A DNA stretch of 63,802 bases, the filler included, from Chrysochromulina tobinii (lineage: Eukaryota): the NCBI GenBank assembly GCA_001275005.1. It is 12 parts of 12 records of this genome, joined end to end, with 100 filler letters (N's around TTAATTAATTAA, not from the genome) between each part and the next. Parts side by side here need not be neighbours in the genome. Positions count along the whole stretch, not along the records: positions 39,317 to 54,014 come from JWZX01000312.1; 11 more parts are not named here. The stretch is one strand, 5' to 3'. The number at the start of each line of letters is the position of its first letter. Positions within the stretch are counted from its first letter, which is position 1. Made by a program: the position numbers and the translations under genes. Below are positions 42,898-51,282 of this stretch, piece by piece. The notes below the pieces were generated by a model. It did not search any database. It saw nothing but the letters and a program-made list of their open reading frames with translations, and was not told the DNA's origin.

Positions 42898-45800
42898 ATG
42901 GCGAATGATGAAGACAGCGATGGTGAAGCGGCTCGCAAGCGCCCTCTGGGAAAGCCGCCCATCGGCAGCAACGGTCGGCCTCAGATTTGGAAGCCTGACA
43001 CGGGCTGGGTCGACGAGATGGCGGGCTTCAACCCGTCCGGCATTCGAGGAACTCGAGAGCGTAAGCAGACGCGCAAGGCGCTCGAGAAGGTGGCTTGGCT
43101 TGACGAGGACGACGAGGACGACAGAGCGCGAGCGCGTGCCGCGTCTCACAAGGACGATGACGATTTGACCTTTGGCCTCGGCGGGGCGACTCATCGGAGG
43201 GCTTCGGGCGGCAAGAGAGGCAGCATGACTGTGTCAGCACTTGAGCGCGCACGAACGGCCGCCGCTGCAGCGGCGTCCATGACGCAACCCGTATCCCTGG
43301 CGCCGCCGCCAGCCGACTTCAAGCCTCTCGCCGACCTCAAGGGAGCCAATGCCTCCGACGTCGTCGGCAGGCGAATCCGCACGTGGTACGAGGGCGACGC
43401 AGGCAGCGACGCAGGCGGCGGCGCAGGTGGCGGCGCAGGCGGCGACGCCGGCGGCGACGCAGGCAAGGATGGCTCTGCGACCGTTTGCAGCAGGGGTGGG
43501 CTTGAGCGCCGTGTTGAGCCCGCGGTGGGCATCGTGACGTTCTACGACCCTGCCGGCCGGCTGCACGCTGTGTACGATGGCGAGAACGAGGCCAATGGGC
43601 TCTGGGTCGACGGGGACGACGAATGGGAATGGGTGGGACGCCCTTGATGACGTCTGATTGCCTCTGATGACATCTGATTGCCGCTGATGGCCTCTGATGA
43701 CACCCTTGATTGCTTCCCTCATCAGGTGGACGAGGGCGATCCACTCTTCGCGCCACCGTCGCGGGAAGAATTGTTTGGCAAGTGGAGGGAGGACGACGTT
43801 ACAGAGGAGATTGAGAGGATTTACCTTGTGCGCGAGTCGGCGGCGGAGAGTGAGATCGAGGGAGATCGACTGCGGAGCGAGATCGAGGGAGATCGACTGC
43901 GGAGCCGATCGGCGCCGTCGCCGCCCCAGCTCGACTTCTACGTCAAGTGGAAGGCGCGATCCCACCTCCACTGCCAGTGGGTGCCCAGGACGGCGCTCGA
44001 AGAGGACAATGACCTCAACAAGCGGCGCGTGGCCAAGTTCCTCAAGCAGCTCGCGACCGCGCTCGCGGACGCACGAGCGTACGCCGCCGACGCGGCCGCC
44101 GACGCGGCCGCCGATGCGGCCGCCGACGGCGCGGCGCTCAGCGGCAGCGGCAGCAGAGCGCCATTGACGCGAGTGGAGTCCGCTACTAGCGCCGTCCTGG
44201 GCATGGGCTTCGACGAGCGCATCGGCCGCGCGGCCGTGGATGTCGATGGCCATCCGTGGGAGGCAATCAGACGTCATCAGAGGCAATCAAGAGGCGACCA
44301 CACGGTCCATCCTTGGGAGGCAGGGGAGTCCTCTACGAGCGCCGTCCTGGGCGTGGATGTCGATGGCCATCCTTGGGAGGCGGGGGAGCCGCCTTTCAAT
44401 GCCGACTACTTGGAGGTGGACCGTGTGGTCGCCTCTTGATTGCCTCTGATGACGTCTGATTGCCTCTGATGACACCCTTGATTGCGTCCCTCATCAGGTG
44501 GACCGTGTGGTCGCCTCGCGCCCCTCTGAGCATGGTCTACCGCCCTCGTTTCTGGTCAAGTGGCGCGCCCTCCCGTAAGCGAGCGCTCACCACGGCGCCC
44601 TCCCGTATGCGAGCGCTCACCACGGCGCTACTTGGGGGGTGGCCTCGCATGCAAGCGCTCACCACGGCGCTACTTGGGGAGGGTGGCCTCGCATGCAAAT
44701 GCTCACCACGGCGCTCCGCGCCTCTCTGGTTCCCCACAGGTATGCGAGCGCTACATGGGAGGGTTGCCTCGCCCTCGTCAACCACCAGAGCGCGATCGCA
44801 GCGTTTCGGGCGCGTCAGCGGCCGCCGCCGCCCGGCGAGGTGCTGCTCGCGCTCAACGGCTACCGTCCACCGCCGTCCAACTTCACACCGCTCGCTGCCT
44901 CGCCCCAGTACAAGAATGGCCACGTCCTGCAGCCCCACCAACTCGATGGGCTCAACTGGCTTCTCTTCAGCTGGTGCGGCATGACCCTCCGCGCCTACGA
45001 CGGCGCCCGCGCGCCGCCACCGCACTGCCGCGCTGCCACGTCGCATAGGTTGCCGCCGCTTAGGTTGGCCGCCGTGCGCCGCTGCCACATCGCCGTCACA
45101 TCGCCGCCGCGTTGCGATCTCTTCACACCGCGTTGCGATCTCTTCACAGCGTCTCGCAGTCTCCCTGGCTCCCGTTCACAGCTCCCTTGCTCCCCTTCAC
45201 ACCAGGTACAATCATCGCTCCGTGATCCTCGCCGACGAGATGGGCTTGGGCAAGACGGCCCAGGCCATCGCGATGCTCGACCACATCTGGCGGCGCGAGA
45301 GCATCCGGGGCCCTTTTCTCATCGTCGCGCCGCTCTCGACACTGGCCCACTGGCAACGGGAGATTGAGGAATGGACTGACCTCTCGGTGCTCAATTATTG
45401 GAGACCCCTGATTACCTCTGATGACCTCTGATGACCTCTGATGACCTCTGATTACCTCTGATTACCTCTGATTACCTCCCTCATCAGGTGCTCAATTACT
45501 ACGGTCGCGCCGAGTCTCGCGACGTCATGCATCAGTACGACGTGGCACTGTGAAGGACCCCCTTAGCATGCACGTGCTCACGACGACGCGCTCGCTCCCC
45601 ACAGGTATGAGTGGCACTTTGAAGGACTCGCCGCACAGCCGTCGCCTGCTGCGCCGCAGACGAATGCCATCAGTGGCCATCAGTGGCAGCCGTCCGTGCC
45701 GTTGCCGTCGCCGGGCAGAGGTACCGGTAGGGGCAACGGCCGTGGCGAGAGTGCGCGAGGCGGGGGGCGCCGTAGTGGGCGTGGGCGAGGCTCGACGCTC

Positions 45801-48800: not shown

Positions 48801-51282
48801 TCTGATGACCTCTGATGACTTCACAGATGATTGTTTGGGTGGAGCTCACGTACGACCAGAAGAAGATGTACCGCGCCGTGCTGGAGAGCCGTCGCGACGT
48901 GCTGCTGCACGGGGTGGAGAACGCGCCGCTCCCGTCGCTGATCAATCTCCAACTCGAGCTGCGCAAGTGTTGTAACCACCCGTGAGTCTCGTCAATTGCC
49001 TCTTGATGGCCTCTGATCAATTTCCAACTCGAGCTGCGCAAGTGTTGTAACCACCCGTGAGTCTCGTCAATTGCCTCTTGATTGCCTCTGATCAATCCGT
49101 ACCTTCTCCGGGGCTCCTCGCATGCAAGTCTTGCTCACCACGGCGCGCTCCACCCCCCCCCATTCGTGTTCCCCACAGGTACCTCATACGTGGCGTCGAG
49201 CAATCGATGACGAACCACAAGACAGCGGCGGAGGTGCGCGAGGCGATGCCCCACCCCCCTCCCCGGCCGCATGCAAGTGCTCACCACGGCGCCGCGTCGC
49301 CCCGCTCTCCCCACAGGTACGCGAGGCGATGCCCCACCCTCCTCCCCGCCGCATGCAAGTGCTCACCACGGCGCCGCGTCGCCCCGCTCTCCCCACAGGT
49401 ACGCGAGGCGATGCTCGCGGCCAGCGGCAAGCTCGTGCTGCTCGATAAGCTGCTACCGAAGCTACGATCAGAGGGACGACGCGTGCTCATCTTCTCGCAG
49501 GTGTGCTGATTGAGATTGATTGAGATGGATTGAGATTGATTGACATGGATTGAGATTGATCGGAGGGACGACGCGTGCTCATCTTCTCGCAGTTTACGAT
49601 GATGCTCGCGCTGCTGGGCGAGTTTCTCGACGCCCGTGGCTTCTCGTACGTGCAGCTCGACGGCTCGGTGACCGGCGACGCTCGGCAGGCGGCCATCGAC
49701 CGCTTTTGCAAGCCCGGCTCGTCCATCTTCGCCTTCCTCCTCTCGACGCGCGCGGGCGGCGTCGGCATTAACCTCATCGCGGCCGACACCTGCATCATCT
49801 TCGATAGCGACTGGAACCCGCAGAACGACGTGCAGGCCATGGCTCGTTCACACCGTATTGGTCAGCAGAAGATCGTCAAAGTGTTCCGTCTCGTCACGCG
49901 CAACACGTACGGCGCTCCCAAATTTGGAAGATTCGTCAAGGTCGCTCGGCATGCAAGTGCTCACCACGGCGCCCCCTCCTCCCCCTAATTAGGTACGAGG
50001 CGGAGCTCGTCAAGGCCGCGAACAAGAAGCTCGGCCTCGAACGCGCCTTCAACGCCGACCAGGGCGCTGGAGGCGCTGTCGCGGGCGGCACCGACGACCC
50101 AACGGCCGATGAGCCAACGGCCGACGGGACGCTCATCGACGGTGGCGGAGCGGCCAACGGTGTGAAATCATACAACGGCCCACCGCGCGACCGGGCGGCA
50201 GTTGAGCGCATGCTACGCTGCGGTGCGCAAGACATCATGCTCGACGACGACAGCGCGTTTCGTCGATTCTCTGAGGCGGACATAGATTCCCTGTTGCAGA
50301 GTTCCGTCAGTTCCGTCACGACGAGCGCTGCGACGAGCGCGTCGGCCGGCGGCGGCGGCTCGAGCTTCGCCAAGGTCGCCTTCATCGCCGACGGCGCGCA
50401 GATCGACATGGGCGACCCGGAGTTCTGGGCCAAGGTGCTGCCCGCCGACCTGGTCGAGCCCGGCATGGAGGTAGAGGTAGATGTAGAGGTAGATGCGCAT
50501 CCCCGCCGAGCGCCCACCGCCCTGCCCCGCATGCAACTGCTCACCACGGCGCCCGTCCCTCGTTCCTGTCGTTCCCCACAGGTCGAGGGCATCCCCGCCG
50601 AACGCCCTCGACGGGCTGCTGGGGTGGCCGCCCAGAAGATGCGCTGGTACGTTTATGGCGGCTGATTGCGACTGATGGCGACTGATTGCGACTGATTGTG
50701 TGGCCGCTCAGAAGATGCGCTGGTGCGCTGATTGCGACTGATTGCGACTGATTGCGACTGGTTGCGACTGATTGCGACTGATTGGGTGGCCGCCCAGAAG
50801 ATGCGCTGGTACGCCGCGGTGGAGGCGGGCCTCCCTCCGCATGCAAGTGCTCACCACGGCGCCCGCCCCTCGTTCCCCACAGGTACGCCGCGGTGGAGGC
50901 GGGCCTGCCTCCGGAAAAGGCCAAAGGCGCTGCAGTGGGCGCTGCGGGGGCGTCTGCCAAGCGAAAGCGCCCACCGCAGCGCGACGCCGACGGCGACGAG
51001 GAGGGTGAGATGGATGAGGCGGCGCTCGTCGAGGATTGCGGGGAGTGCACCAACTGCCTCGACAAGCGCAAGTTCGGAGGGCCGGGCCTCAAGAAGCAGA
51101 AATGCAAGGTGCCTGTGCCTGCGGGGACGCGCGCCGCCGTGAGCACCGCCGCCTCCCCCTCCGCCCCCTCCTCCGCCGTCCCCCTCGAAGCTAAGGCATG
51201 GGCAGGAGCAGCGGAAGGGGGGCGCCCGCAGCGGGGGGGGGGCAAGCGCCGTAGCTACGCGGAGTTGGACGAGTGGGAGTAA
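42898..51282 (+). CDS. CHD-family (CHD6-9-like) SNF2 chromatin remodeler, 17 exons, ~2100 aa: Tudor-like, two chromodomains, ATPase, helicase-C, partial CXXC finger
   Basis: Manual splice with introns 43633-43725, 44416-44497, 44575-44739, 44974-45205, 45387-45487, 45535-45604, 45876-45955, 48149-48348, 48443-48528, 48741-48826, 48982-49178, 49234-49398, 49501-49592, 49907-49992, 50471-50581, 50647-50882. This restores [84 protein letters not shown] and TRNTYE. Confidence 0.9.
45876..45955 (+). other. class A intron with exact exon duplication
   Basis: Starts with 33 nt identical to the start of the next exon, then CTGATTACC repeats and CCTCATCAG. Confidence 0.9.
48443..48528 (+). other. class B GC-AG intron with exon duplication
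   Basis: GCACGCCGCTCCAAAA(A/T)AGCACCACGGAG copy of the next exon, GCATGCAAGTGCTCACCATGGCG core, CCCCACAG; removal restores LTGTPLQN. Confidence 0.85.
49234..49398 (+). other. two class B introns in tandem with no exon between them
   Basis: 83-nt and 82-nt near-identical units joined at CAG|GT (49316/49317). Confidence 0.85.
49501..49592 (+). other. mirror-class intron ending in a copy of the upstream exon
   Basis: GTGTGC + (GATTGAGATT)n + 35-nt copy of the upstream exon end supplying the CAG; removal restores [11 protein letters not shown]. Confidence 0.85.

Follow-up and report, generated by a model that had tools for sequence, protein, structure and literature searches.

A cassette shared by eight introns of a CHD-type gene

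The window, meaning the whole stretch of DNA analysed here, comprises 63,802 nt from the cultured freshwater haptophyte alga Chrysochromulina tobinii, with contigs chained and N spacers between them. Its plus strand encodes a CHD-type chromatin remodeller (42898..51284, the end being approximate to a few bases), which reads as a single open frame of 2100 amino acids after removal of 16 introns. The Chromo, SNF2-related and Helicase_C matches each fall on single exons. A protein of the window belongs to a 90%-identity cluster together with a C. tobinii protein. The SNF2 domain of the protein is split by a 730-residue low-complexity stretch (45956-48148) rich in short tandem duplications. Here we describe a 23-nt cassette that recurs in the introns of this gene, and the intron family to which it belongs.

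The initial annotation had sorted the intron filler into class A, which consists of decamer arrays, and class B, marked by the cassette, and had named eight class B introns. The cassette is indeed present in all eight. At up to 3 mismatches the window contains 11 matches, compared to 0 in 100 shuffles. Ten are on the plus strand, all within the CHD-type gene (44605, 44647, 44691, 45566, 48485, 49269, 49351, 49949, 50529 and 50839), and the eleventh, which was missing from the earlier list, is on the minus strand at 12390-12412. Two looser copies are also present, one interrupted by a 3-nt insertion (49120-49145) and one with 4 mismatches (44575).

RNA contigs join across 44575-44739, 48443-48528, 48982-49178, 49234-49398 and 49907-49992 in four of four runs, across 50471-50581 in X11 record 9 and X13 record 15, and across 50647-50882 in X11 record 9. 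These joints establish exact splicing for seven of the eight named introns, while the eighth, 45535-45604, rests on the open frame.

All eight introns are on the plus strand and differ in detail, in places from their first description. The intron at 44575..44739 is a mosaic in which the cassette, present four times, is interleaved with copied sequence of the flanking exons. The intron at 45535..45604 consists of a 23-nt copy of the following exon start, a diverged cassette (45566-45588), a tail and CCCCACAG. A GC donor opens 48443..48528, which continues with a 29-nt exon-start copy, a linker, the cassette and a 21-nt tail. Two tandem units (cassettes 49269 and 49351) form 49234..49398 and are skipped as one 165-nt intron. 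The intron at 49907..49992 has an exact cassette (49949-49971) and ends in the alternative acceptor CTAATTAG, not in CCCCACAG as previously assigned; 50471..50581 carries its cassette at 50529-50551. The remaining two combine class A and class B. In 48982..49178, class A-type filler with an upstream-exon copy precedes the cassette with the 3-nt insertion and a tail. The intron at 50647..50882 begins like the parent intron described below and continues with arrays of class A decamers, a 30-nt exon-start copy (50809-50838), an exact cassette (50839-50861) and a tail.

Anatomy of the cassette family

We scanned metagenome contigs by exact cassette match, which yielded at least 131 loci (L numbers), and added one locus from a viral collection as well as the window. 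The metagenome loci and the window hold at least 356 matches with up to 4 mismatches, corresponding to at least 306 distinct sites by the upstream flank or at least 318 by both flanks. Most counts below use the 306-site set, which merged some parent-type sites; the 318-site recount serves the parent-type analysis. The cassette is exact at 141 of the 306 sites, a share partly selected by the exact-match scan. Its depth in DNA run X1 (27,847 versus about 41) hints at hundreds of copies and is not a copy number. Prokaryote genomes gave 0 cassette matches. Viral contigs gave a single one, at a contig end, and 0 matches to the 5' part of the parent intron described below. In this viral-collection contig (L132 3001-3060), a class B module forms the end and is preceded by phage-like DNA; the contig is likely an assembly chimera.

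A typical class B intron contains, in order, a 10-46-nt copy of the start of the next exon, which gives the GT, the cassette, a pyrimidine tail and AG. An acceptor-like end follows the cassette at 226 of 306 sites, 146 of them with CCCCACAG. The cassette had been described as usually lying right after the exon copy. An anchored exon-start copy is found upstream at 135 of 218 testable class B sites (control 0.47%). Within the window, no clear copy was scored for intron 48982 (6.5), and the copy is broken in 49907 and 50471. Apart from four whole-unit repeats, the copies are spread over 10-46 nt in length and have 95.6% identity. The implied intron length is 57-95 nt in 123 of the 135 sites. Copy length and linker length are anticorrelated (rho -0.59, 123 introns), which fits a minimum intron size, perhaps partly reflects how copy ends were cut, and carries little weight. 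Target sites are donor-like, with G at +5 in 68% versus a background of 30%.

The class A acceptors show the same exon-start copy in 44 of 86 cases (control 0.3%), in line with the proposal that both classes use one insertion route. The initial annotation also named the pattern that would speak against it, namely cassettes in old introns without exon duplication. We found instead that a direct repeat of some kind spans the cassette at 214 of 292 sites (control 3.2%). The sole window intron with neither exon copy nor filler, 44974-45205, is also without the cassette, a single case. One further idea, that the class B tail is a mutated copy of the upstream exon, was rejected, as there is no excess over shuffled pairs (129 sites).

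Class A and class B share a parent intron

The cassette forms the middle of a parent intron of about 70 nt, and the 5' part of this parent is the class A decamer. A representative copy at L008 6510-6578 reads GTACGTTGATTGCCACTGATGAC(C/T)TGCCTT, followed by the cassette and the tail. At 29 of 318 sites a class A-type 15-mer directly adjoins the cassette, compared to 0 at a control offset of 60 nt, so class B is not the second, sequence-unrelated element it had been taken for. Across 12 loci, 20 sites have the whole 5' part from the donor onward; in 10 of them the last element is a copy of the upstream exon, which supplies the AG. Of 41 donor-type starts, 14 continue with the cassette, 9 with a class A acceptor and 18 with something else.

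On sequence grounds, class B introns appear to be the 3' part of the parent placed behind an exon copy, and a mirror type appears to be the 5' part placed before one. The class A arrays probably arose when decamers of the 5' part expanded in tandem.

A mirror-type intron with an RNA joint is present at 49501-49592 in the window. It consists of a parent-like donor GTGTGCTGATTG, a decamer array TGATTGAGAT and a 30-nt upstream-exon copy supplying the AG. Further class A-type decamer fillers occur in neighbouring genes (28730-28818, 40072-40190, 40320-40440, 40620-40730 and 40890-41060), some of them with other units (TGATTGCCAC, TGATGACCTCCC). Near the end of a minus-strand gene, 39715-39925 contains 5'-truncated cassette variants (CACGTGCTCACCATGGCG) in arrays of both orientations.

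Orientation, reading frame and branch point

Relative to the nearest anchor, 160 of the 306 sites agree in orientation, 11 are opposite and 135 have no anchor; three of the 11 are mirror calls of one inverted copy. It had been suggested that the cassette could seed a splice signal in either orientation, its reverse complement offering the donor-like GTGAGCAC. The strand bias argues against this, and no inverted copy, judged by sequence, uses GTGAGCAC as a donor.

A 72-nt antisense class B insertion on the minus strand (12366..12437) lies in frame within a plus-strand FG-GAP gene and contains a 19-nt duplication, a cassette without the branch-like A, a tail and CCCCACAG. Like the copy at L067 991, it has the tail, the exact AG junction and the duplication, yet is in frame. 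The junction would therefore be set by copying, beyond splicing alone. Among solitary insertions shorter than 63 nt, seven of eight are a multiple of three (p 0.003), compared to 43 of 122 between 63 and 100 nt.

The proposed branch-like character of CTCAC agrees with the pattern of substitutions. Its A is altered in 1 of 191 acceptor-bearing copies, an unspliced antisense one, versus 6 of 115 other copies, three of which belong to a single tandem array. For the next A, the figure is 9 of the 191. The A of CTCAC is intact in all 190 sense acceptor-bearing copies, and 22-34 bases follow it in 121 of 123 simple introns. CTCAC is thus likely the branch point.

Kinship between neighbouring introns

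Culture-type loci overlap at 99.4-100% identity and therefore represent one strain. For a within-strain kinship test we collapsed tandem units, reducing 226 sites to 193. Cassette variants are shared by 57 of 208 same-contig pairs (null mean 29), tails by 17 of 186 (null 3.0) and upstream runs by 18 of 186 (null 3.8). In each case 0 of 1000 permutations were as high. Environmental loci show the same local kinship, only weaker. Variants are also shared between opposite strands (13/43 and 4/5 pairs).

Several individual pairs can be followed in detail. Intron 48443 aligns with 50647-50882 over its linker, its cassette and its 21-nt tail; in 50647-50882 the linker is exon-derived, being part of that intron's own exon copy. 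Judging from this alignment, 50647-50882 is likely the donor of the 48443 module. The exons that follow the two introns are alike for their first 9 nt, and L075 has the same tail together with 10 nt of the exon start. In L045, the intron at 8535 carries exon-derived bases of the upstream donor 6001. A class A case is found in the window, where 45387 carries exon-derived bases of donor 45876. Donors thus lie on either side of recipients; a one-way donor direction was rejected, with 9 rows downstream and 16 upstream, although tandem units account for many of these. Exon starts agree over a longer stretch where two tails are nearly identical (3.64 versus 2.78 nt), an excess of microhomology at the acceptor junction, and one trio shares 9-10 nt.

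A presence-absence polymorphism

We aligned seven strain-to-strain overlaps. In one of them, L074 holds an 81-nt class B intron with a perfect 33-nt exon copy, while L010 lacks the intron at 98.4% identity. An intron lies 524 nt downstream, and its L010 version has exactly the module of the L074 intron; the downstream copy in L074 itself differs by one base. Among the matches listed, this tail occurs at 3 of 306 sites, namely both introns of the pair and L005, and the upstream hexamer together with the tail occurs at one other site of 306. A gain is the simpler reading.

Other differences between strains were noted. A 94-nt unit of intron plus exon start at L021 1543-1659 is tandemly doubled in one strain when compared to L048, a pattern as in 49234-49398 of the window. 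In L046 (1228-1250) and L099 the cassette is inserted in antisense, and a gene takes its TGA stop from the reverse strand of this insertion. The last residues of this gene presumably resemble the end of a family A DNA polymerase; the 38 amino acids give no Pfam match. A further 42-nt insert with CCCCACAG is present in L099 and absent from L046.

Proposed copying of intron ends during DNA repair

Our results favour, with some confidence, a reading in which the cassette is the conserved middle of one short spliceosomal intron family, spread when DNA repair, primed by homology, copies from introns already present. In this model, an exonic DNA end that is broken or stalled would pair through a few matching bases with the exon start behind an existing intron, often within a few kb. 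The 3' 40-70 bases of the donor intron, comprising acceptor, tail and cassette, would then be copied, and the copied end would rejoin its own strand 10-46 bases further on, leaving a duplication. The repeated exon start would supply the GT and the copied piece the branch point CTCAC and the AG, and removal would be exact for this reason. A product would persist if it can be spliced (about 63 nt or more) or stays in frame, and would otherwise be purged. In the mirror event, the 5' part of the parent would be combined with an upstream-exon copy ending in AG.

Since every product precedes a GT-starting exon, it would be a ready template for the next GT site, and the cycle would renew itself. More tentatively, and a little short of an even call, we propose a chain reaction that requires no transposase: repair copies an intron end into exon sites that match the exon start of the donor, the duplication completes the intron and the product becomes a fresh donor. 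Such a family would spread locally and be invisible to introner screens that look for end-to-end similarity.

The occurrence of both polarities, of donors on both sides and of inversions favours a DNA template, and the mirror event in particular speaks for such a template and for a polymerase of the host's repair machinery. A candidate enzyme route is polymerase-theta-like templated insertion. The inserts share several properties with templated insertions, namely derivation from nearby DNA, either orientation and a patchwork structure.

A number of observations weigh against copying during repair as the sole explanation. The best match lies on the same locus for just 35 of 148 sites (2.8 expected), and therefore most donors would have to be distant, unsampled or diverged. 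The excess of shared exon starts rests on non-independent pairs, the three pairs of at least 8 nt all belonging to one trio. Microhomology of at least 2 nt at the 5' junction is found in 7 of 23 cases after dropping 9 tandem units (control 16%), which is no significant excess. The 5' edge of the cassette at GCATGC is sharper than would be expected from random template switching: in 85 unselected acceptor-bearing copies the edge is G in 85%, the value falls to 39% at the preceding base, and 71 of the 85 retain the first 10 cassette bases within 3 mismatches. The 3' half of the cassette occurs alone 28 times (about 2 expected) and the 5' half 3 times (0.9 expected). The sharp edge and this asymmetry may indicate that a mobiliser recognises the sequence, or that the 5' half has a role in splicing. 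The L074/L010 difference could also be a loss between repeats, and the branch point is assigned from sequence. Finally, the loci were sampled through exact matches, among the matches listed, and an autonomous element may lie outside the sample.

Transposase, RNA template or consensus

The strongest rival is a non-autonomous copy-and-paste element, in which an HUH (Replitron-like) or other transposase recognises the cassette, carries a variable piece of donor flank and makes duplications of variable length. We regard this as unlikely. The sharp cassette edges speak for it, as does a 12-nt palindrome, CTTGCATGCAAG, that straddles the 5' edge. The combination of a variable duplication with a donor-derived fuzzy end is also seen here, as in Replitron-1 of Chlamydomonas, which makes variable-length target duplications and has a 'fuzzy' end derived from the flank of the parent copy; the same study reports one putative Replitron protein from C. 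tobinii (PMC10288648). Against a transposase, both ends of the insert vary, and neither inserts nor parents have terminal inverted or direct repeats or shared termini. The 10-46-nt duplications are not of fixed length, as they would be for elements of the TIR/MITE type. The initial annotation had called for a search for a full-length parent or noncoding RNA. The sampled loci contain the parent of about 70 nt and nothing longer: apart from one tandem pair, flanks common to different contigs extend no further than the 30 nt of the parent part on the upstream side and 31 nt on the downstream side. No RNA family emerged either, as an Rfam scan of one parent copy gave a chance match only (E 6.1). 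A stable fold is absent in the four examples analysed (z -0.35, 0.74, 1.15 and -1.71). An exact, inverted 50-nt copy of 44417-44466, the 5' part of a neighbouring class A intron, lies on the minus strand at 44260..44309, in frame in the gene model and flanked by short direct repeats. It contains no cassette, and local copying is therefore possible without one.

At L072 19-41, an AG|GT duplication intron contains an inverted cassette that turns back at the palindrome CTTGCATGCAAG.

Somewhat less likely still is an RNA template, with a reverse transcriptase primed at a nick copying unspliced pre-mRNA, either from the gene itself or from one nearby. The commonest class, with its intact acceptor end, variable 5' end and variable duplication, resembles the products of target-primed reverse transcription. 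The local excess and the 160 of 171 oriented copies in sense would fit as well, and template switching during reverse transcription is a proposed route of intron gain (PMC3443670). However, selection would also yield a sense bias, and the mirror-image products with an intact donor end require an antisense template. Inverted copies and the variants shared across strands also speak against an RNA template. The cassette flanks have no poly(A), and likewise lack the A-rich tail of a SINE, and no lariat-type junction was seen by eye.

A consensus extended around the branch site or an enhancer, evolved separately in introns born from plain tandem duplication, is very improbable and largely refuted: the near-invariant branch-like A in intron copies and the donor-like target sites would suit it, but whole cassettes occur in unspliced, in-frame and antisense insertions, neighbours have private variants in common, and the polymorphic L074 intron has the full module together with a perfect duplication.

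Relation to known routes of intron gain

Introners with a single splice site of their own, the second being co-opted from the duplicated target, are described in two reports for Aureococcus, Symbiodinium, Polarella (classes 4/5 and 6/8/10) and metagenome-assembled genomes (MAGs) of marine Chrysochromulina, where the 5' site is carried and the duplication is 4 bp (PMC9860276, bioRxiv 10.1101/2020.10.14.339549). The cassette introns resemble these in being multicopy, exactly spliced and recently gained, with insert and duplicated exon each giving one site. As in introners, recent similarity is shared by many introns at unrelated sites (at least 318). One-site introners have class-fixed duplications of 3-9 nt, end-to-end similarity and often terminal inverted repeats. 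The cassette introns, unlike them, have 10-46-nt duplications, variable ends, co-option of either site, mosaics and locally clustered relatives. Similarity does not extend to both intron ends: the 5' part is a local exon copy at 135 of 218 sites, and parent-type copies end in an upstream-exon copy. A 2025 introner screen lists 0 families for C. tobinii in its supplement file 7 (PMC12130899).

In Daphnia pulex introns attributed to the repair of staggered double-strand breaks, the adjacent exon is likewise repeated directly at the opposite intron end, internal repeats form mosaics and alleles are polymorphic. Their repeats are 4-12 bp and the filler is mostly of unknown source (PMC4202315), whereas here the repeats are longer and the filler is traced to existing introns, often adjoining ones. 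Replitron-1 and Replitron-N1, HUH transposons of Chlamydomonas, share copy-and-paste movement, a variable-length duplication and carried donor-flank bases. They differ in being kilobases long and in having direct repeats at the termini, one end that is fixed, and a transposase. No such features are present in the sampled loci, and the parts of the report at hand do not mention intron-making (PMC10288648). In tandem genomic duplication a duplicated exon likewise gives the splice sites, and in intron transfer between paralogues recombination puts an intron into an empty site. The former brings no foreign branch and acceptor module and the latter requires a paralogue (PMC3443670), whereas here a few matching bases in a non-homologous exon appear to be enough.

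The literature searched, which included PMC4122922, PMC8469720 and PMC4580454 and covered few subscription journals, contained no account of this cassette family or of intron spread by partial copying of neighbours with long duplications. The cassette introns act like introners and look most like repair-born introns that have another intron as filler. There is a fair chance that they represent a distinct, self-renewing route of intron gain.

Elsewhere in the window, a stretch on a separate contig (54115-56290) may be the remnant of a retroelement or recombinase.

Implications for intron gain

Outside transposon-derived introners, the source of most new introns is unknown. The DNA of this alga reveals the donor, the recipient and the junctions, along with unspliced products that failed and one allele that is empty, at hundreds of sites at least. 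If repair alone suffices, this would constitute a self-sustaining route of intron gain that needs no transposon, that would explain the GT-starting exons and that published screens would miss.

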